64,000 bases of DNA from NCBI GenBank assembly GCA_028692545.1, contig JAQUXC010000004.1:630-64629 (forward strand), written 5' to 3'. Below the pieces are notes generated by a model. It did no database searches, was not told where the DNA came from, and saw nothing but the letters and a program-made list of their open reading frames with translations. Made by a program: the position numbers and the translations under genes. This document shows positions 3,688-37,698 of the stretch, piece by piece (positions within the stretch are counted from its first letter, which is position 1; every line of letters starts with the position of its first letter). The stretch comes from Patescibacteria group bacterium. Lineage in GTDB: Bacteria > Patescibacteriota > Patescibacteriia > UBA1558 > S5-K13.

Positions 3688-6204
3688 CTATTTCTTCAAA
3701 TAACTCTTCAAATATTCCCCAGTCACACTTTTTTCATTTCTAACAATATCTTCAGGTGTTCCATAAGCAATTACACGACCACCATTTTCTCCACCATCAG
3801 GACCCAAGTCAATTATATAATCCATTGATTTTATAACATGCAAATTATGCTCAATAATCAGAATTGTGTTTCCACGTTCTACAAGTTTGTTTAACACGTG
3901 GAGCAACAATTCAATATCATGATAATGAAGTCCTGTTGTGGGCTCATCCAACAAATACAATGTGCGTTTTCCAAGTGTGTTTGTAAGCTCTTTTGCGAGT
4001 TTTATGCGCTGAGCTTCTCCACCTGAAAGAGTTGTTGCTGATTGTCCCAGCTTCAAATATCCAAGTCCAACTTCTATTAGAACTTTTAATTTATCAGTTA
4101 TAAAGTAATTTCCGTCAAAAAGTTTGTATGCCTCATCAATTGTGAGGTCTAGCACATCAGCAATACTATGATTTTTGTATTTTACTTGTAATGTTTCTCT
4201 GTTAAATCTTTTGCCATGACATACTTCACACTCCACAAGTACTGGTGGTAAAAAATGCATTTCAATAAGGTTAAATCCTGCTCCAGAACACGCTTCACAT
4301 CTTCCACCTGCTCGATTGAATGAAAAACGAGATAATGTATATGCTCTTTCACGTGATTCTGGAAGTTCTGCAAAAAATTCTCTAATTGGTGAAAATATTC
4401 CAGTATATGTTGCTGGATTTGATCGTGGAGTTCGACCAATTGGTGATTGATTTATAATTACTAATTTATCAACATATTCTAATCCTTTTATTTCTTTTAC
4501 ATTTTCTAAATTTGGTTTTGCGGGTCTACTCATAATCTTTGAAACATTTTTGTATAACACATCATATATAAGAGATGATTTTCCACTTCCTGAAACTCCA
4601 GTAATACTAACCATACGGCCAAGAGGAATTTCTACATTTACTCCTTTTAGATTATTTGCTTTTGCACCTATAATTTTTATAGCTCCTTTATTTTTCTCAC
4701 GTCGGTGTGCAGGAACTTCGATTTTTCTCTGTCCTCTTAAATATTGCAAAGTCAAAGATTTTTGGAATTTTGATCGCGACGTAGCCGAAGGCGAAGTCGG
4801 ATCAAGTAATTCTAAAGTATTTCCAATTGCCATGACTTCCCCTCCGTGAACTCCAGCAAGAGGTCCAAGATCTACTAAATAATCTGATTCAAGAATAGTT
4901 CTTTCGTCGTGCTCAACAATTATTACAGTATTATTTTTATCGCGTAATGCTTTTAGAGTTTCAATTAATCTGTCAGTGTCTCTTTCATGGAGTCCAATTG
5001 TTGGCTCATCTAAAACATATAGTGTTCGAGAAAGTTGAGATCCAATCTGTGATGATAATCTTATACGTTGTGCTTCTCCACCTGACAATGTTTCTGCTTC
5101 ACGACTAAGTGATAAATAATTCAATCCAACTTTTGATAAAAACTCATATCTATTTATAATTTGATTAATTACCAAATCAGCAATTGCCTTTTGTCGCTTT
5201 GTCATTTTGTCTTGGAAGTGTTTGAAAAATTCAATTGCCTTATCAATAGACAAATCACAAACTTCTGCAATATTCTTTTTGTTTATTTTTACTGACAATG
5301 CTTCATCACGTAATCTTCTACCATTACATTTGTCACATACTTTTCCTTTGAAACCAATTTTTCCCAAACCAGAACATTTTTCACATGCACCATGAGGAGA
5401 ATTAAATGAAAATAATCTTGGCTCTACTTCTGGAAATGAAAAACTATCATTTGGACAAGTCCAGTTTGACGATAATAAAAATTCTTCTTTGTTTATTTGA
5501 ACAACTACAAGACCTTTACTATATGCTAGTGAACTTTCTACTGCTTCAAATAATCTCGTTTCATCAGTTAGCATTACCTTATCAACTACCAAATCAATGC
5601 TGTGCTTTTTCTTTGGGTCTAATACAATTTTTTCTCGAAGTGAATGCATTTTTCCATCAACTCTAACTTCTCCATAGCCAAGTTTTAGATAATCATAAAG
5701 CATTTGATAATATTCACCTTTTCTGTCCATGACAATTGGTGAAAGTATTACTGCAAAGTCCTTATCACCTACTTTTTTAGAAATAATAATATCTATCATT
5801 TCCTCAAGAGATAATTTTTCTATTTTTGTTCCGCAAAGTGGACAAAATACTTCACCAACTCTCGCATAAAGAATTCTTAAGTAATCATAAATATCAGTAA
5901 GTGTTCCAACTGTAGACCTTGGATTATGTGATAGAGCTTTTTGGTCAATAGAAATTGATGGAGCAAGTCCAATTATTTCATCAACATCAGCGGGTTTTTT
6001 TTGTCCCAAAAATTGTCTCATGTATGGTGAAAGTGACTCAACATATTGACGCTGACCTTCAGCAAAAATTGTATCAAAAGCAAGAGACGATTTCCCACTT
6101 CCAGAAAGTCCTGTTATTACTGTTAATTTGTTGTGCGGAATTTCTAAATCTATGTTTTTTAGATTATGCATTCTCGCACCATGTATAATTATTTTTTCTT
6201 CCAT
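3688..6204 (-). CDS. uvrA: Excinuclease ABC subunit A
   Basis: Two ABC modules ([14 protein letters not shown] and [13 protein letters not shown]), LSGGEAQR signature repeats, and Zn-finger Cys clusters. Confidence 0.95.
4772..4803. repeat. GC-rich palindromic insert, in frame, in the uvrA inter-domain linker
   Basis: gatcgcgacgtagccgaaggcgaagtcggatc encodes [11 protein letters not shown] between ...GNTLELL and [11 protein letters not shown]. The E. coli linker is shorter here (recalled from memory). Confidence 0.5.
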
Positions 6205-17932: not shown

Positions 17933-20449
17933 TTAAATATTATTGTTCATTTTTTTATAAAACATAAGTTTGACTGTTTCTGAACATATAAAATATATAA
18001 ACACTATCGCCAGTATAATAATCATGTGAGAAGTAGCTGGTTTTACAAAATGGAATGTATTTTGTCCAAAACTTGTATATGGAATCATAATTGTCAAAAT
18101 TATTGCTAATATTGTAAGAACACTCAAAGATGTAGATGGTTTTGAAGCTTTTATAAATAATGCTTTACTACGGACAGAAAATATTAGGATAAGTTCCGTA
18201 AGAATACTTCCAATGAACCAATTTGTTTGCAAAACTTCTGGAGATATACGATAAAACAAACCAAAAAATATAAAATCAAAAATAGTACTTACAATTCCCA
18301 AAACTATTGAAAAAAGAACTATTTCTTTTACTTCATATTTTTTAGGAAGCATTAATTCTTTTTTGTCTGCTGTATCTGTGTAAATAGATATCATAGGAGT
18401 GTCTGATAGTAAATTTATCAAAAGAATCTGTACTGGCAACATTGGTAAAAAATCTACAAGAAGAGATGTACTTGCAACTGCAAAAAAATTACCAAAATTA
18501 GATGCAAGTGTTGCTTTTATATATTTTGTAATATTTGCAAAAACAGTTCTACCTTCTTTTATTCCATCAAGTATTACTGTAAGATTTTTTTGTAATAATA
18601 TTATATCAGTCGATTCTCTTGCTATGTCAGATGCACTATTTACCACAATAGAAACTCCAGCAATCTTCAAAGCTGGTGCATCATTTATACCTTCACCCAA
18701 AAATCCTATCATTTTATCTTCTCGCAAAAGTTCTATTATCTTATATTTTTGTTCTGGTGAAACTCTTGCGAAAACAGAATATTCTTCAAGCGCGTCTAAT
18801 TTTCTGTCTCTTGTCATATTTTCCCAAGTAGAACCAAGTATTACTTTTTCTGGAGAATCTATTAGTCCTATTTGATGAGCTACTGCTCCAGCCACTTCAA
18901 TACTATCCCCTGTAATTATTTTTATTTTTACACCCAAACTGTTGGCTTTTTTTACAATTTCATAAGAACTATCTTTTATAGGATCTACAAATGATATTAC
19001 ACCCAAAAATTCAAAATCTTTTTCTTTTATCAAATCTATATTTTCTATTGATTTATTTTTTATTATTTTTCTTGCAATAGCTAGTGTACGATGTCCCTGT
19101 ATACCCTCCATAGAAATCCATTTTTCAATATTTAATCTTTCATCTTTTGATATTATACTTTTATCTAAAATTTCCTCTATTGCACCACGAGTTATAATTT
19201 CTATTTTAGAAGCACTTTTTACAAGAACTATATTTCTTTTTGTATTTGGATTAAATGGCTCTTCTTCTAATATTTTACTATTTTCTATAATCTTTTTTTG
19301 ATCTTTTTTTATTGCTTTCCATAATGCTATATCAAATGGTTCTAGTTTGCATTTTTCATCACATTCTCCAGCTAAATTAGCACAAATAAGTATTTCATCT
19401 CTAAAATCAGAATAAATATTTGCAACCTTTAATTCATTTTTTGTAAGTGTTCCTGTTTTATCAGAGCACAGTATTTCTATTCCGCCCAAATCCTGAATAG
19501 CTGACAATCTTTTTACTATGACATCATGTTTTGCAAGACTTCTTGCTCCTTTTGAAAGAGAAAATGTAGTAACAAGTGGAAGTGCTTCTGGTATTACACT
19601 TACAGTAAGTGCAATTGCAAAAATAATAAGTTCTATATAATCCAATTTACCTTTTTTTATAATTATATTTGCCAACAGAATTACAACAAGAGTTATAGCA
19701 ACTAATTTCAAAATAAAATTCGAAAAATGTGATATACCTTTTTCAAAATCACTAACTCTTTTTGTTTCAGTTGAAAGTTTTGCAATATTTCCAAAAACAG
19801 TTTCTTTTCCAACAGCTAAAACTACAGCAATCATCTTACCACTCAATACATCTGTTCCAGAAAATGCCAAATTATTTGCTTCATAATATGATTTTGCTTG
19901 TTCTTTTAATACTCCATCTATTTTTTTTACTGAGACTGACTCCCCAGTAAGTACAGATTCATTTATAGTTAAATTATTTTGTTCCAAAATACGCACATCA
20001 GCAGGTACTTTGTCTCCTGTTTTCAAAATTATAATATCCCCTATTACCAAATTTTTTGATGGAATTGAAATTATATTCTCATCTCTTAAAACTTTTGTTT
20101 TTGGCATTGTGTACTTATTCAAAAGTTGAACAGTTTTTTCAGATCTATACTCTTGATAAAAACCCAAAAAAGTATTCACAGCTAAAAAAATAAATATCAT
20201 TAATGTATCTAATCTTTGCCCAAGAATTATAGTTATTATTATTGCTGCAATTAACAAATAAACAAAAGCTGACTTAAATTGACGGATAAAAATTTTAAAT
20301 CCATTGAGCTTCAATGAATCTATTTCATTGTATCCATTTTTTAAAAGTTTTAAATTGACATCTTTTTCTGTAAGACCTTTTTTGATAGATGTTTTTAATT
20401 CATCTAAAATATCTTTTTTTTCTTTTATAGAATATTCAAATATGTTCAT
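17933..20449 (-). CDS. Cation-transporting P-type ATPase (P2/P3-type, Ca2+/Mg2+-like)
   Basis: CSDKTGTLT phosphorylation motif, TGDSIEVAGA, GEGINDAPALK, about 10 TM segments. Confidence 0.9.
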   Translation of the reverse strand: MNIFEYSIKEKKDILDELKTSIKKGLTEKDVNLKLLKNGYNEIDSLKLNGFKIFIRQFKSAFVYLLIAAIIITIILGQRLDTLMIFIFLAVNTFLGFYQEYRSEKTVQLLNKYTMPKTKVLRDENIISIPSKNLVIGDIIILKTGDKVPADVRILEQNNLTINESVLTGESVSVKKIDGVLKEQAKSYYEANNLAFSGTDVLSGKMIAVVLAVGKETVFGNIAKLSTETKRVSDFEKGISHFSNFILKLVAITLVVILLANIIIKKGKLDYIELIIFAIALTVSVIPEALPLVTTFSLSKGARSLAKHDVIVKRLSAIQDLGGIEILCSDKTGTLTKNELKVANIYSDFRDEILICANLAGECDEKCKLEPFDIALWKAIKKDQKKIIENSKILEEEPFNPNTKRNIVLVKSASKIEIITRGAIEEILDKSIISKDERLNIEKWISMEGIQGHRTLAIARKIIKNKSIENIDLIKEKDFEFLGVISFVDPIKDSSYEIVKKANSLGVKIKIITGDSIEVAGAVAHQIGLIDSPEKVILGSTWENMTRDRKLDALEEYSVFARVSPEQKYKIIELLREDKMIGFLGEGINDAPALKIAGVSIVVNSASDIARESTDIILLQKNLTVILDGIKEGRTVFANITKYIKATLASNFGNFFAVASTSLLVDFLPMLPVQILLINLLSDTPMISIYTDTADKKELMLPKKYEVKEIVLFSIVLGIVSTIFDFIFFGLFYRISPEVLQTNWFIGSILTELILIFSVRSKALFIKASKPSTSLSVLTILAIILTIMIPYTSFGQNTFHFVKPATSHMIIILAIVFIYFICSETVKLMFYKKMNNNI

Positions 20450-22494: not shown

Positions 22495-24291
22495 TTAGAT
22501 ATTTCTTTTTCTACTATGTCTAACTCTTTCAATTTCAGTTAGATGTTTTTTTCTAAGTCTTATATTTTTTGGAGTAATTTCTAAATATTCATCAGAATTC
22601 ATAATACTCATTCCACTTTCAAGAGTAATTTCTATTGGGGTTACAAGTTTTATTGCATCATCAGCATTTGAAGATCTCATGTTTGTAAGTGCTTTTCCTT
22701 TTATTGGGTTTACTACCATATCCATTCCTTTTGCAGTATTTCCTACAATCATTCCTTCATATACTTCTATATTTGCTTTTATATAAAGTGCTCCCCTTTC
22801 TTGTAAATTGAAAAGTGAAAAACCAAGTGCTTTTCCTGTTGCCATAGAAACCATTGAACCAAGTTTTGTTTTTTCTATTTTTCCAGCATATTTTTTGAAT
22901 CCTATTACACGAGAATACAATATTCCTTCACCTCTTGTATCAACAATAAATTCATTTTTATACCCCAAAAGTCCACGAGTTGGAATTTCAAAAACTATTC
23001 TTGTATGTCCGTGCTCTGGTTTCATTTCTGTCATTACACCACAACGCATTGAAAGTTTTTGAATTATAGTTCCAGACATTTCTTGTGGAACATTTATAGT
23101 TACCTCTTCAAATGGTTCTAATTTTATTCCATCTTGCTCTTTTATAATTACATGTGGTTGAGAAATTTGGAGTTCATATCCTTCTCTTCTTAAATTTTCC
23201 AATAAAATTGCAATATGCATCTCACCTCTACCATAAACTTTGTAAAATTCTTTTGAGGTAAAATCAATTTTGAGTCCTACATTTACTTCCAATTCTTTTT
23301 CTAATCTTTCTTTTAATTGTCTGCTTGTTACAAATTTTCCATCACGACCGGCAAATGGAGAATTATTTACAAGAAAATTCAAACATATTGTTGGTTCATC
23401 TATATTTATATTTGGAAGTGCTTCTTGATTTTCATTTTCATAAATTGTTTCTCCAATATATATATCAGGAAGTCCTGCTATCATTACAATATCACCAGAG
23501 ACAGCAGTTTCCACTTCTTTTCTATTCAAACCCTCAAAAGTAAACAATTTTCCAATTTTCCCTTTTCTAACATTTCCATGGACATCTTTTATAAAAACAT
23601 TTTGTCCTTGACTTATTGTTCCTTCATAAACTCTAGTAACCGCAAGTCTTCCCAAAAAATTATCATAAGCCAAATTAAATGGTTGAACCAAAAGTGGCAT
23701 ATTATCTAATTCTTCGCTCGATGCAACAGGAACTTTTTCCAAAATTATATCAAGAAGTGGTGCAAAATCTTTTGCATCATCATGCATTTTGTGTTTTGCA
23801 ACTCCATCACGTGCAATTGCATATATTGTGGTAAAATCTAATTGTTCATCGCTTGCCCCAAGGTCTAGAAATAATTCAAAAATCATTTCCTTTACTTCGT
23901 CAGGATTTGCAGCTGGTTTATCAATTTTATTTATTACAACAATTGGTTTGAGTCCCAAATTCAAAGATTTTTTCAAAACAAATTTTGTCTGAGGCATTGG
24001 CCCTTCTTGCGCATCAACAACCAAAACTACAGAGTCAATAGATCGCAAAACTCGCTCAACTTCAGATCCAAAGTCAACGTGTCCAGGAGTGTCTACAATA
24101 TTTATCTTTGTATCTTTGTAATAGATAGAAGTATTTTTTGAGTAAATTGTAATTCCTCTTTCTTTTTCTAAGTCATTGCTGTCCATACTTACATCACTAT
24201 TACTCATTCCAGTCTGACGCATCAGCATGTCTGTAATAGTTGTTTTTCCATGGTCAACATGAGCAATAATTGCTATATTTCTTATTTCCAT
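22495..24291 (-). CDS. typA: Translational GTPase TypA/BipA
   Basis: [25 protein letters not shown]-motifs; 598 aa. Confidence 0.95.
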
Positions 24292-24500
24292 ATATTAGTA
24301 AAATATATAATATTAAAAGTGCTTTAAAGAATATAATAATTTTTTTGTATTGTCAATGTTAATAGATGATAATTTATATTATGCAAATACCCACTCCGGG
24401 GGGTGACGTAATCCCAGAGTGGTATTTTTAAAAGTCTTATTTTTTAAATTCATATCTTGATTATTTCCTAAATAATGCTACCATAAATATATTCAAAAAT

Positions 24501-24563
24501 ATGACATTAAACAAATTTCAGAATACAAATAAATCTTGGTGGACTACCTATAATATTGGGTAG
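24501..24563 (+). CDS. Putative trp leader peptide MTLNKFQNTNKSWWTTYNIG (20 aa) with tandem Trp codons
   Basis: ATG at 24501, TGG TGG at 24537-24542, TAG at 24561-24563. The stop codon sits inside segment 2 of the alternative hairpins. No strong Shine-Dalgarno. Confidence 0.5.
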   Translation: MTLNKFQNTNKSWWTTYNIG

Positions 24564-24581
24564 AGATATTTTGTTTTAAAA

Positions 24582-24618
24582 TTTTTAGAAAACTACTCAA
24601 TATTGTTTCAATTGGGTA
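24582..24618 (+). terminator. Attenuator terminator upstream of trpB
   Basis: aaactactcaat-attgtttca-attgggtagttt (12-bp stem with one G-U) followed by T7. The upstream segment attgggtag (24555-24563) is identical to the 3' arm, so it can pair with the 5' arm as an antiterminator. Confidence 0.6.
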
Positions 24619-24732
24619 GTTTTTTTATTTATCAAAAATTATTATGCATTACTATTTTTATAACAAATCAACTCAACCTTGGCGATAAATATGTCTAGTG
24701 TTATTTATTAATTATTTAAACTTAAAAATTAT

Positions 24733-25953
24733 ATGAAAAATTCATTAAAAATGTCCCCTGATCGATTTGGCTACTTTGGAAAATATGGCGGACAAATTAT
24801 TCCTGACATTTTAAAACCAATATTTGATAATATTGCAGTAGCTTACAGAAATGCTCAGCATGATTCTAATTTTCAAAAAGAATATCAAAACCTACTAAAA
24901 AACTATGTAGGGCGACCATCACCACTATATTATGCTAAAAATCTATCAGAAAAATTTGGTGGTGCAAAAATATATCTAAAACGTGAAGATTTAAATCACA
25001 CAGGAGCACACAAAATAAATCACACTCTTGGTGAAGCATTACTTGCTAAAAAAATGGGAAAGACAACATTATTAGCAGAAACAGGAGCTGGTCAACATGG
25101 TGTAGCACTGGCTACAGCAGCAGCGCTTGTTGGAATAAAATGTGAAATTCATATGGGTGAAATAGATGTTTTAAAACAACATCCAAATGTTATTCGCATG
25201 CAATTATTAGGTGCAAAAGTTGTCACAGTAAAATCTGGTGGAAGGTGTCTAAAAGATGCAGTTGATAGTGCTTTTGATGCTTTTGTAAAAGATTCAAAGA
25301 ATATTTTCTTTGGCATTGGCTCAATTGTAGGCCCACATCCATTTCCTATGATAGTCAGAAATTTTCAATCAATAATTGGAAAAGAAACAAAGGGTCAAAT
25401 TTTAGAACAAGAAAAGAGATTGCCAGATTATCTAATAGCCTGTGTTGGAGGTGGTTCAAATGCAATTGGATTGTTTCACGAATTTTTAGATGATACAAAT
25501 GTAAAAATGATAGGAGTTGAACCTAGTGGACGAAGTTTCAAACCAGGAGATAATGCAGCCACACTAACATTAGGAAGACCAGGAAATATTCATGGTATGT
25601 TTACTTATTTACTACAAGATGATAACGGAGAACCATTGCCAGTCCATTCCATTGCTTCAGGATTAGATTATCCAGGGGTTGGACCAATTCACTCTGACTT
25701 GAAAGATAAAGGAAGAGTAATCTATAAAACTATAAATGACATAGAAGCACTTGATGCATTTCAAATTTTAACTAAATCTGAAGGTATAATTCCTGCATTA
25801 GAAAGTTCTCATGCACTAGCACATGCTATAAAAATAGCCCCTAGATTAAATAAAAATGAAATTATTATTGTCAATTTGTCTGGTAGGGGCGATAAAGATA
25901 TTGATTATGTGGCAGATAGATTAGAACTTTCAAAGAATAATTCACAATATTAA
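24733..25953 (+). CDS. trpB: Tryptophan synthase beta chain
   Basis: PLP-lysine region [40 protein letters not shown]. No trpA or other trp genes in the window. Confidence 0.9.
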
Positions 25954-35178: not shown

Positions 35179-37698
35179 TTAAGCAACATCCATGTCACTT
35201 GAAATAGATCCACCTATTGTCATTATTCTATTTTTAATTTCATTTTCTATAATTACTCTATCTCTTCCATATTTTAATCTTGATAATTCTTTTATTTCTT
35301 TAACAAATTGTTCTTTTGGTTCATCTCTTTTTATAGTCATCATAGAAAATGCAGGTGGATTATAATTATCTATCAAAAGCTTTATATATGCATTATAAGC
35401 TGGAACATTTACAAGGTCATATTCACTAAAAATAGGAGCAAATTGTTTTGCCACAATTTCTGCATCTTTCACACCTATTCTAAAACTCACAAATGTTCCT
35501 ACGTTTCCAAAAACAGCATCTTTTATTCTCTCATCGCCCTTTTCTATAAGTTGCGTTATGTACTGATGAGCTATAACAAGATTTAATTTATATTTCCTAG
35601 CTTCAGACAATATTACAGCAATACTATCTGTAATAAAATTCTGGAACTCATCTATATATAAATAAAAATTATGACGATTTTCTTCAGAAGTATCAACTCT
35701 CGAAAGTGCTGACATTAAAATTTTTCCAACAAAAACCATACCTATCAAACTACTATTAAGTTCGCCAATTTTACCTTTTGAAAGATTTATTAGTAAAATC
35801 TTTTTTTCATCTATTATTTTTCTAAAATTAAATGAACTTTTTTGTTGAGAAATAATAGGACGCATAACATCGTTTGTAATAAATGGTGTAAGTTTACTAG
35901 TAATATATGGTACCATATTTGCAAGTGCTGCTTCTCCGCCTGCTTTTTGTGCTTGTTTTTCCCAAAAATCTCTTACTAAATAATCTTTACATTTTGATAA
36001 TTTGTATTTTCTAAAATCCTCATCAGCAAGTACTCTAGGAATTTCCAAAAGTGTAGAACCTGATTCAGGATCCTCCATTACAAGAAGCATTGCATTTCTC
36101 ATATATTGTTCAAACATTGGTCCACCAGTAGCCTTTAGATCATATAATTTATCAAAAATCTTTATCATTTCATTTATAACAAAAGTTTTCTGATCTTGCG
36201 TGTCAAATTCAAGCATGTTTACCCCAAGTGGTCTCTCTGTGTCAGATGGATCAAAAAGAATTACATCTTCTATTCTTTCTTTTGGTATATATTTCAAAAT
36301 TTCTTCTATCAAATCTCCGTGAGGATCTATAACACAAATACCCTCACCATTTTTTATATCTTGAATAGCCATATTAACTTGATAATAAGATTTTCCCGTA
36401 CCAGACTTTCCAATTATATACATATGCCTACTTCTATCATCTTCTTTTATTTTTATAATAGTTTCTTTATCTCTATATATATTTCTTCCAAGTGAAATAC
36501 CTACGCTTGGAATATTATTAGGAGCTCCTGATTTTTTTGCTTCAAGCCAAGATATGTTTGGAGTAGATGTTGATGACAAAGGAAGGTGATATATACTAGC
36601 TAATTCTTCTGTATTTAATATGATTCTCTGTGAATCATTAAATTTTCTGTATATAAAATCAGATATTAATGTATTTTGATTTACTTTTGATGCAAAAAAA
36701 GAATTTCCATATTCATACATATTGTATTGACTGAAAGAATTTGAAATATTATCTAAATATATTTTTGCCGTACCTTCAGTTTTTGCACTTACTATTATTC
36801 TAATATTTAAATCCAATCCAGCTTTTGAATTTTTTTCCTCAATACCTTTCAATGTTTCTTGTTCCATTTGAGATAATTTTGGTGTCTGATTTGGATCTTT
36901 CATCGCATTTTTTGATGATTCCGACTTGAATACATCAAGCAACAAATTTATAAATTGAAAAAATAAATTCATAGTAATTCCTCTTCCAAGTAATCTTCTT
37001 GCGGAAAGCAAATCTCCTGTCTTTGAAACTTTTCTAGTAAATCTACTACTTTTTTTGTGCCATCTTTTATATGAACTTCTTGCTATAATTTGAATAGCTG
37101 CTGAATCACCTATTTCTAATTTTGTAAGAGAGTTTGTTATAGAGTCAAATGGATCGAGCTCTATTTTTTTATAAGTCTTTATAGGAAATATGTAATGATT
37201 CTTTAGTCTTATAGAAGAACCAAGTACAACTCCATCTGGATTAAAAATATTATAATCTTCGACTGGTTCTATCTCTACATCAGGATAAACAGACTGTATT
37301 CTTTCTTTAAAAAAATTTATAGAATTCTCTGGTAATCCAATATAAAAATATATAAGTCCATCTAGAAGCACAACCTCCAATGAAAAATGATCAGTTCTTT
37401 TACCAATAATGGAATTTATACCTCTCTGAGCCTTCATTCCACCTAGGGTACTATACAAATTTTCTATTACCGAAATTCTTTCTTGTGTTTTTTGTTGAAA
37501 ATTTTGTATATTTTCTTTTTTTCCATCATCTGAACAAAACTTAGGAACTCTTAATTTCAATAATTTTAATTTAAATGCATTATCTATTTGAGATTTATTT
37601 ATTTTTTTTATAATAAAAAATATTATAGTAAAAAATAATACCAAAAAGATTAAAAAAATATATATAGAAATTGTGATATCACCTATTTGTAAATACAT
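35179..37698 (-). CDS. Membrane-anchored P-loop ATPase, VirD4/TraG-like (DUF87-like core plus TraG-D_C-like C-terminus)
   Basis: N-terminal TM; Walker A IIGKSGTGKSYY followed by VIDPHGDL; Walker B YLYIDEFQNF; SEARKYKLNLVIAHQYITQL block. Confidence 0.6.
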   Translation of the reverse strand: MYLQIGDITISIYIFLIFLVLFFTIIFFIIKKINKSQIDNAFKLKLLKLRVPKFCSDDGKKENIQNFQQKTQERISVIENLYSTLGGMKAQRGINSIIGKRTDHFSLEVVLLDGLIYFYIGLPENSINFFKERIQSVYPDVEIEPVEDYNIFNPDGVVLGSSIRLKNHYIFPIKTYKKIELDPFDSITNSLTKLEIGDSAAIQIIARSSYKRWHKKSSRFTRKVSKTGDLLSARRLLGRGITMNLFFQFINLLLDVFKSESSKNAMKDPNQTPKLSQMEQETLKGIEEKNSKAGLDLNIRIIVSAKTEGTAKIYLDNISNSFSQYNMYEYGNSFFASKVNQNTLISDFIYRKFNDSQRIILNTEELASIYHLPLSSTSTPNISWLEAKKSGAPNNIPSVGISLGRNIYRDKETIIKIKEDDRSRHMYIIGKSGTGKSYYQVNMAIQDIKNGEGICVIDPHGDLIEEILKYIPKERIEDVILFDPSDTERPLGVNMLEFDTQDQKTFVINEMIKIFDKLYDLKATGGPMFEQYMRNAMLLVMEDPESGSTLLEIPRVLADEDFRKYKLSKCKDYLVRDFWEKQAQKAGGEAALANMVPYITSKLTPFITNDVMRPIISQQKSSFNFRKIIDEKKILLINLSKGKIGELNSSLIGMVFVGKILMSALSRVDTSEENRHNFYLYIDEFQNFITDSIAVILSEARKYKLNLVIAHQYITQLIEKGDERIKDAVFGNVGTFVSFRIGVKDAEIVAKQFAPIFSEYDLVNVPAYNAYIKLLIDNYNPPAFSMMTIKRDEPKEQFVKEIKELSRLKYGRDRVIIENEIKNRIMTIGGSISSDMDVA

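Follow-up and report, generated by a model that had tools for sequence, protein, structure and literature searches.

In the trpL leader of Escherichia coli (RF00513), a short open reading frame (ORF) with tandem UGG (Trp) codons near its end is followed by an intrinsic U-tract terminator ahead of the first structural gene of trpEDCBA; four RNA segments form the mutually exclusive pairings 1:2, 2:3, and 3:4, and the leader stop codon lies at segment 2. Here, we describe a leader with all of these features upstream of trpB, the gene for the tryptophan synthase beta chain, in a 64-kb stretch of DNA (referred to below as the window, i.e., the whole stretch that was analyzed) from a metagenome-assembled genome of the Patescibacteria, or candidate phyla radiation (CPR). 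The residues after the Trp codons are also similar, with WWT(T/A) in the CPR leader and WWRTS in E. coli. Unlike trpL, the CPR leader has no sequence or covariance-model similarity to the Rfam family, would control a lone trpB instead of trpEDCBA, and begins with an upstream ORF (uORF1) that lacks a Shine-Dalgarno sequence and is near-leaderless in relatives; a second conserved upstream ORF (uORF2) follows it. Candidate trp attenuators are also described in Actinobacteria, among them, in Corynebacterium diphtheriae, ones that precede trpB1EDGC and trpB2A (PMC1262725). These resemble the CPR leader in having leader peptides with double or triple UGG and an antiterminator and terminator upstream of a trpB-first operon, but they are G+C rich, with conserved triples gGCC-rGCy-GGCC, and no second conserved uORF is described for them (PMC1262725). 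The CPR elements, by contrast, form a sequence family of their own.

Open-access papers on CPR or Patescibacteria yielded none on a leader peptide, attenuation, a riboswitch, or tryptophan synthase together with indole. Judged from sequence, the attenuator would be a known type in a new lineage, and the uORF2 module is potentially a new part. Leaders that respond to Trp by other means are known. The TRAP-regulated trp leader of Bacillus carries about 9 to 11 (G/U)AG triplets, spaced 2 to 3 nucleotides (nt) apart and overlapping the antiterminator. The Bacillus subtilis anti-TRAP (rtpA/at) operon, as Chen and Yanofsky are said to have described it, has a T-box followed by a leader peptide, rtpLP, with three Trp codons. 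rtpLP acts through a stop codon that overlaps the rtpA Shine-Dalgarno sequence, and conservation of its peptide is not reported. TnaC, a short arrest peptide that responds to Trp, has the pattern W-x3-D-x7-P just before its stop codon and lies upstream of tryptophanase with a Rho-dependent spacer. PepNL is another short Trp-responsive arrest peptide (PMC11890864).

Structure of the trpB leader

Region 24457-24732 very probably comprises the promoter and the leader of a transcript that carries trpB alone and is under ribosome-mediated transcription attenuation reading charged tRNA-Trp. The elements of this leader are as follows.

24457-24484, plus strand: putative sigma-70-type promoter (-35 TTGATT at 24457-24462, 16-nt spacer, -10 TACCAT at 24479-24484)
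24501-24563, plus strand: uORF1, leader peptide MTLNKFQNTNKSWWTTYNIG, 20 codons plus TAG, from the ORF list, with homologues in 54 distinct CPR sequences
24537-24542, plus strand: tandem Trp codons UGG UGG (codons 13-14 of uORF1), the proposed sensing site, read directly from the sequence
24544-24550, plus strand: segment 1, CUACCUA, the 5' arm of the 1:2 hairpin, beginning 1 nt past the second UGG
24555-24563, plus strand: segment 2, AUUGGGUAG (DNA ATTGGGTAG), with the UAG stop of uORF1 as its last three bases
24590-24601, plus strand: segment 3, AAACUACUCAAU (DNA AAACTACTCAAT), the 5' arm of the terminator
24611-24622, plus strand: segment 4, AUUGGGUAGUUU (DNA 3' arm ATTGGGTAGTTT), running into U7 and extending to 24626; predicted premature termination site

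Direct reading of the sequence and the ORF list agrees with the original prediction of a trpL-type attenuator (leader ORF, alternative hairpins, and U-tract terminator before trpB), every structural element of which is present. Segment 2 lies where it had been placed, overlapping the leader stop, and the proposed 12-bp-stem hairpin followed by T7 was found again; the CTACC of segment 1 pairs as proposed, but its coordinates, given as 24545-24549, were off by one, the arm being CTACC(TA) at 24544-24550. Bases 24557-24563 of segment 2 pair with segment 1 to give a 7-bp hairpin ending in the stop codon, and the whole of segment 2 (24555-24563) can pair with bases 24593-24601 of segment 3, forming the antiterminator. 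The terminator (24590-24626) has a 12- to 15-bp stem, a 9-nt loop, and T7 (U7 in the RNA) at 24620-24626, and the trpB ATG (24733) is 196 nt downstream of the first Trp codon. A short leader ORF with Trp codons is thereby placed before a Trp biosynthesis gene, with an intrinsic terminator, conserved in about 50 loci, between the two; pairing 2:3 is exclusive with the terminator, 1:2 is the anti-antiterminator, and the geometry is such that a ribosome stalled at the Trp codons would cover segment 1 and one at the stop codon segment 2.

RNAfold places both the 1:2 and the terminator hairpins in the minimum free energy and the centroid structures. The fold of 24530-24630 has a free energy of -24.1 kcal/mol (z = -3.6) and none of 200 shuffled sequences was as stable, so the two hairpins that had been expected appear at a stability far beyond that of the shuffles. 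Individually, the helices of the window amount to -8.9 kcal/mol for 1:2, -10.9 kcal/mol for the terminator (3:4), and -10.3 kcal/mol for 2:3 when segment 1 is masked; three helices of such similar strength are what a kinetic switch needs. A simple terminator scan flagged the 1:2 hairpin and passed over the terminator, because the 9-nt loop of the latter exceeds the 8-nt limit of the tool. The tandem Trp codons are as rare as had been supposed: with UGG making up 0.74% of the codons in window genes, such a pair is expected in a given 20-codon ORF at about 1e-3. Intergenic TGGTGG/CCACCA occurs at only three sites in the 64 kb, including the leader, and the other two are found a few bases 3' of a tRNA-Asn gene and in a terminator stem.

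The leader transcript would start about 10 nt before the uORF1 ATG. The promoter sequence is kept block-wise in the relatives L161 and L002 (TTGATTATTT..AAATA.TG.TA..AT). In L161, a syntenic relative that is 91% identical, a distance of 6 nt separates the -10 box from the uORF1 ATG, implying a leaderless-type start there; the spacing is similar in L001, L003, and L082 (read by eye), and its range of 6 to 8 nt in relatives suggests leaderless translation of the leader peptide. No Shine-Dalgarno motif was found before uORF1, uORF2, or trpB; because only 4 of 49 window genes have a Shine-Dalgarno-like motif, start regions being A/U-rich instead, this is normal for the genome. Finally, Trp residues are absent from the window TrpB and from all 65 CPR relatives, when about 3 would be expected in each of these 66 sequences from the codon usage of window genes. 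A TrpB of this kind can be made during Trp starvation.

Conservation and covariation in relatives

We fetched 160 trpB loci, about 66 of them CPR, from genome and metagenome collections. Close TrpB relatives are many (75 to 91% identical), and the organism-named ones are all labeled CPR or "bacterium"; the window TrpB itself, from an uncultured organism, carries the NCBI label "Patescibacteria group bacterium," so that the CPR-like genome guessed at from the letters alone is borne out. In 54 distinct CPR sequences, whose record titles name Falkowbacteria, Kerfeldbacteria, Moraniibacteriota, Nomurabacteria, Paceibacterota, Parcubacteria, and others, trpB is preceded by a leader ORF with W or WW, a hairpin right after the Trp codons, and a U-tract terminator. 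UGG is tandem in 42 of the 54 and single in 12.

Sixteen close sequences were aligned (A1), and a covariance model (R1) was built from them. For helices 1:2 and 3:4 together, 93.4% of the cells of A1 are paired, compared with 32 to 53% in slid controls; none of 500 shuffles attained this level, and 7 of the pairs show changes on both sides. Helix 3:4 alone is 92.7% paired, with 5 pairs changed on both sides. The antiterminator 2:3 is paired in 97.9% of cells (22 to 44% in slid controls), and RNAalifold, run without a supplied structure, returned an 11-bp 2:3 helix nested inside 1:4. Together with the masked folds described below and the energies of -10.3 versus -10.9 kcal/mol in the window, this upholds the claim that 2:3 competes with 3:4; conservation and covariation in relatives, which had been named as a check, proved strongly positive, with 54 distinct sequences and compensatory changes. 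In about 50 CPR loci, model R1 locates the element where it is expected, and conservation in that many other loci rules out chance. A second alignment (A2), derived from the covariance model, was rejected for pair counts: true hits were mixed with reverse-strand terminators, and distant terminators were misplaced in insert columns.

Because the model placed distant terminators poorly, segment-based energy tests were used. To mimic a ribosome stalled at UGG, segment 1 was forced unpaired and segment 4 was treated as not yet transcribed; in at least 43 of 53 loci, segment 2 then captures the terminator 5' arm, with free energies of -10 to -22 kcal/mol; the failures come mostly from the hairpin parser. 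Duplexes between segment 2 and segment 3 of the same locus have a mean of -12.8 kcal/mol, compared with -7.8 kcal/mol for cross-locus pairs and -5.6 ± 2.9 kcal/mol for shuffled ones. All four segments covary through at least eight sequence types, including CUACC/GGGUAG, CUGCC/GGCAG, CCGCC/GGCGG, CUCAC/GUGGG, and CUGUC/GGACAG, while 1:2, 3:4, and the competing 2:3 are all kept.

Conservation extends to the geometry. In about 40 of the 54 sequences, segment 1 begins 4 to 8 nt past the first base of the first UGG, which places it within the footprint of a ribosome stalled there; in 45 of 54 loci, the stop codon ends at -5 to +4 nt relative to the 3' end of segment 2, and the first UGG and the stop are 8 or 9 codons apart in 44 of 54. 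Anatomy, alternative pairings, covariation, and conserved spacing are observed directly. A conserved frame, Trp codons, a stop on segment 2, and a set distance from Trp to segment 1 are features that only a translating ribosome would require.

In L001, L003, L004, and L081-L084 (e.g., L003 2804-2835), GGUUUUUUGUUU lies directly after the 1:2 hairpin, and the window equivalent is AGAUAUUUUGUUUU; this may be an RNA-polymerase pause or partial terminator synchronizing ribosome and polymerase.

Proposed mechanism and alternative explanations

From this arrangement, we infer that uORF1 is translated, that its translation is coupled to transcription, and that the outcome responds to Trp. Transcription would begin about 10 nt before uORF1, and a ribosome would translate uORF1 while RNA polymerase moves ahead. 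With plentiful Trp-tRNA, the ribosome would reach the UAG and cover segment 2, which would re-pair with segment 1 upon ribosome release; segment 3 would be free to pair with segment 4, and the hairpin and U7 would end the transcript near 24626, before trpB. With scarce Trp-tRNA, the ribosome would stall on UGG UGG (24537-24542) and its footprint would hide segment 1, so that segment 2 would pair with segment 3 once the latter is made, no terminator would form, and the polymerase would continue into uORF2 and trpB. The Trp-free TrpB could be synthesized even during starvation.

Several points weigh against so simple a picture. The window hairpins are A/U-rich and modest, and the outcome would hinge on kinetics that lie beyond computation here. 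Rfam contains nothing relevant for the whole window at gathering score or for 24250-24800 at E values up to 10, and permissive scans of five relatives also returned nothing; the element would work like the Trp_leader family (RF00513) without being a sequence member of it. A sensor with a single UGG, as in the 12 relatives mentioned above, would be weaker. Because the relatives are linked by phylogeny, shuffle statistics overstate their independence, and with no Shine-Dalgarno sequence at uORF1, its translation is deduced. uORF2, moreover, would add a further layer of control, and regulation may not be fully trpL-like.

Something other than the ribosome might instead read the leader (a T-box-like contact with tRNA, a TRAP- or TrpR-like protein, or a metabolite riboswitch), with uORF1 incidental. 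In support of this, the relative L144 has a T-box-like leader at the same position (RF00230, 51.8 bits, with a Rfam gathering score of 93), and in some relatives a Trp_repressor-family gene lies directly upstream. That match in L144 is sub-threshold and is the only one to RF00230, the window containing no T-box; the Rfam scans of the leader came back empty even at E values up to 10; 24491-24732 holds just five (G/U)AG triplets, irregularly spaced, and thus no TRAP site; and no TrpR-like gene was found in the 64-kb window. Since the frame, the Trp codons, the stop on segment 2, and the distance from Trp to segment 1 are also conserved, we regard a non-ribosomal reader as very improbable. It could further be argued that uORF1 arose by chance, in a long spacer between divergent genes, beside a hairpin that serves as an ordinary terminator or as an insulator: A/T-rich DNA readily gives short ORFs and A-U hairpins, and scans for promoters and terminators found about as many sites as in shuffled sequence. 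No plus-strand gene upstream of the leader would need a terminator, however, and a hairpin elsewhere in the spacer (24386-24432), which is not conserved, has the look of unconstrained spacer sequence. The 54 distinct sequences, which come from many CPR lineages, keep the whole arrangement upstream of trpB and show compensatory changes, and these comparative data refute the chance reading, to which we give next to no weight.

A second conserved upstream ORF

The original prediction made no mention of uORF2, which lies between the terminator and trpB. Its elements in the window are the following.

24644-24688, plus strand: uORF2, MHYYFYNKSTQPWR, 14 codons plus TAA
24680-24685, plus strand: UGG CGA (Trp-Arg), followed by an A/U-rich spacer to trpB
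24681-24684 with 24692-24695, plus strand: possible weak hairpin of GGCG with UGUC, -2.8 kcal/mol

uORF2 recurs in 50 distinct sequences (e.g., L002 2913-2966 and L017 940-987). Its motif, [YF]x[FY]x[NHQ]x[SCAG]TxxWR, is conserved at the amino acid level, with synonymous variation at third codon positions. Relative to the Trp codon, the conserved positions are as listed.

Position -10: Tyr or Phe in 46 of 50
Position -8: Phe or Tyr in 48 of 50
Position -6: Asn, His, or Gln in 41 of 50
Position -4: Ser, Cys, Ala, or Gly in 49 of 50, with Ser encoded by both TCN and AGY
Position -3: Thr in 42 of 50 (ACT 22, ACC 8, ACA 8, ACG 4)
Position 0: Trp in 50 of 50, UGG
Position +1: Arg in 46 of 50, CGN only

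The motif has 49 matches in six frames of 1.07 Mb, every one of them just upstream of trpB. Between the window and the 91%-identical relative, uORF2 differs by two synonymous changes, a Tyr-to-His change at a variable position, and a Lys-to-Arg change. The distance from Met to Trp is short (12 to 17 residues), and that from UGG to the trpB ATG is 46 to 80 nt in 46 of 50 loci. The Arg codons are 29 CGA, 10 CGC, 5 CGT, and 2 CGG and never AGR; since AGA accounts for 69% of Arg codons in the window, the exclusive use of CGN points to an extra RNA-level constraint on UGGCG.

Many relatives show covariation in a hairpin that begins at GGCG (e.g., GGCGAU/AUCGUU and GGCGCAA/UUGUGUU), but this hairpin is weak overall, with a mean of -5.7 kcal/mol versus -3.6 kcal/mol for shuffles and individual significance in 16 of 50 loci. 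A clear U tract follows it in the A/T-rich L144, L100, L119, L120, L094, L082, and L084, and none follows it in the G+C-rich L010, L011, and L108. A second intrinsic terminator after uORF2, convincing in some lineages, was rejected as a general feature on account of these weak hairpins and missing U tracts. When the stretch between the uORF2 Trp codon and trpB+18 was folded for each locus, no consistent pairing emerged by which uORF2 or its hairpin would sequester the trpB start, and the region before the trpB ATG is unstructured, being A/U-rich or, in G+C-rich genomes, C/U/A-rich. The uORF2 stop codon is 2 to 34 codons past Trp (2 to 4 codons in about half of the loci) and, in the window, 44 nt before trpB. 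In five loci, uORF2 extends to the trpB start or beyond it; L110 and L130, both with an overlapping ATGA, and L011, L082, and L112 are lineages of this kind, and translational coupling is implied in them.

Modular leaders across lineages

The two uORFs occur in varied combinations. L081, L012, and L102 have uORF1 and the terminator alone. In L144, a T-box-like leader (2633-2842), whose Stem I looks truncated, and a terminator take the place of uORF1 and are followed by a uORF2 homologue, MKYFIFYNRCSEYWPCC, at 2857-2910. L112 has a Trp_repressor-family gene and then directly uORF2, with no uORF1, whereas L014, L018, L090, L116/L117, L124, and L129 have a Trp_repressor-family gene, uORF1, and the terminator without uORF2. 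These combinations make uORF2 an independent module. The near-exclusion between uORF2 and the TrpR-like gene hints that uORF2 could be a sensor of free Trp, a weak hint, as it comes from about four to five independent lineages. Trp_repressor-family (PF01371) genes directly upstream of the trpB leader are located as follows.

L014: 2448-2741
L112: 2611-2865
L129: 2593-2844

L014 also has an upstream gene (1438-2445) for a class I W/Y-family aminoacyl-tRNA synthetase (PF00579), probably trpS. In L144, a clean hairpin and U tract follow uORF2, and three tRNA genes are located just upstream.

Beyond CPR, R1 gave weak matches before related trpB genes of Actinomycetota and Bacteroidota, with leaders MAVNVN(R/Q)MWWTA followed by a stop (L028, L141) and ..YWWRC.. 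(Bacteroidota). The loci with WW leader ORFs outside CPR are these.

L028: 2842-2921
L141: 595-674
L036, L037, L046, L047, L060, L149, and L069

With trpA next to trpB in none of the 160 fetched loci, these genes may belong to a widespread clade in which trpB stands alone and several members carry a Trp leader ORF.

Possible functions of uORF2

Among known systems, the B. subtilis rtpA/at operon also has two sensors in series, and L144 (T-box-like element, terminator, uORF2, trpB) shows the same order. Unlike rtpLP, uORF2 usually ends 25 to 50 nt before trpB, with no Shine-Dalgarno sequence, and its peptide is conserved. Like TnaC and PepNL (PMC11890864), uORF2 is short (14 to 24 amino acids), with an invariant Trp and a conserved peptide, and precedes a Trp/indole gene. 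It differs from TnaC in having another motif with no W12/D16/P24-stop pattern, a stop that is not fixed, and a biosynthetic downstream gene (trpB), not a catabolic one; stalling of uORF2 is putative.

Two ideas lead for uORF2: it could be a second checkpoint that relies on a Trp codon, or a nascent peptide that senses a ligand. In the former, uORF2 would be a second, simpler attenuator in tandem, in which a ribosome stalled at the single UGG covers the GGCG hairpin and blocks a second terminator or a Rho entry site, multiplying the dynamic range of the first. The UGG is invariant (50/50), a hairpin lies at or adjoins it in most loci, the exclusive CGN codons point to a constraint on the RNA, and several A/T-rich lineages have the clear U tract described above; in L081, which lacks the whole uORF2 module, the same U/A-rich sequence follows immediately on the first terminator. 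This idea leaves the conserved peptide upstream of Trp unexplained, however. The hairpin is weak in the window and many other loci, the G+C-rich relatives have no U tract, no antiterminator partner exists, and in the five loci where uORF2 reaches or passes the trpB start a ribosome would melt the hairpin at any Trp level. We hold the tandem attenuator to be no better than a tentative proposal.

Peptide-level conservation in a leader of 14 to 25 residues is the signature of a nascent-peptide regulator, and uORF2 could belong to a new family of such peptides, sensing free L-Trp or indole in the ribosome tunnel, stalling its own ribosome, and so gating trpB translation or read-through independently of tRNA charging. 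It would be comparable to TnaC or to the drug-sensing Erm leaders and would complement the attenuator without excluding it. The codon usage favors this (each of the four ACN codons is used for Thr at -3, and Ser has AGY as well as TCN codons), as do the aromatic residues at -10 and -8, the restriction of the motif to trpB, the constant short distance from Met to Trp, the retention of uORF2 in L144 where a T-box replaces uORF1, and the near mutual exclusion with the adjacent TrpR-family gene, uORF2 being absent from 7 of 8 loci that have this gene; TrpR is the free-Trp sensor of E. coli. Against it stand the lack of TnaC similarity and of any W-x3-D-x7-P-stop pattern, and the variable stop position, so that any stall would not be at termination. 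No consistent downstream RNA switch was found, the GGCG hairpin being weak, the exclusion with TrpR reflects few independent lineages, and the logic by which a Trp-induced stall would lower trpB expression has to be invented. On balance, a ligand-sensing peptide seems to us somewhat less probable still than the tandem attenuator, itself doubtful.

The trpB locus and its neighbors

The window has a G+C content of about 27%, and the genome uses the standard genetic code. The leader lies in the spacer between two divergent genes.

22495-24291, minus strand: typA (TIGR01394, 804 bits)
24292-24732: typA-trpB spacer, 441 nt
24733-25953, plus strand: trpB, tryptophan synthase beta chain, 406 amino acids (TIGR00263, 567 bits against a cutoff of 392; PF00291 also matches)

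Judged by these matches, trpB is a bona fide gene and the one that the leader would regulate. It is followed by a DEAD-box helicase gene. No other trp gene was found in the 64-kb window or within 3 kb on either side of trpB in 66 CPR loci, with a poor probe set: the tblastn queries were 711 ORFs flanking non-CPR trpB relatives plus E. coli TrpA, and they are a weak probe for the pathway because nothing was found next to non-CPR relatives either. trpA is adjacent to trpB in none of the 160 fetched loci, non-CPR ones included. The solitude of trpB thus holds at the locus level; of the earlier statement that trpB is an orphan and the rest of the pathway missing, the part concerning the window and the flanks of relatives stands, and the genome-wide claim reaches beyond that scope. 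In one set of metagenome-assembled Patescibacteria genomes, trpA and trpB were present in 15% and 18%, respectively (PMC8672522).

The G+C-rich hairpin with T5 at 24386-24432 (AUACCCACUCC...GAGUGGUAU) was considered as a part of the switch and rejected, being conserved neither in the 91%-identical syntenic L161 nor in L002. It lies between typA and the leader promoter and may be a leftover terminator; at its place, the syntenic L161 has an extra gene for a product of 217 amino acids. Elsewhere in the window, three minus-strand ORFs (3688-6204, 17933-20449, and 35179-37698) have near-equal lengths of 838, 838, and 839 amino acids and may be paralogues; the middle one (17933-20449) is a P-type cation ATPase.

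Implications for CPR bacteria

The CPR leader constitutes an RNA family that can be aligned; its covariance model and its roughly 50 members are usable for annotation of CPR genomes. If the attenuator works as proposed, CPR bacteria, with their tiny genomes and few regulators, use classic leader-peptide attenuation, and this genome does so with almost no Shine-Dalgarno sites. Transcription and translation would be coupled in CPR, and very short or leaderless uORFs would be translated. Trp supply would be monitored, most simply to switch on the salvage of indole to Trp by a Trp-free TrpB when charged tRNA-Trp is low.

We know of no nascent-peptide regulator for a Trp biosynthesis gene. If uORF2 does prove to be one, CPR bacteria would have a protein-free dual sensor on one leader, with uORF1 reading charged tRNA-Trp and uORF2 the free metabolite; this would be the functional equivalent of TrpR plus attenuation in E. 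coli, and in some lineages a TrpR-like gene would have replaced uORF2.

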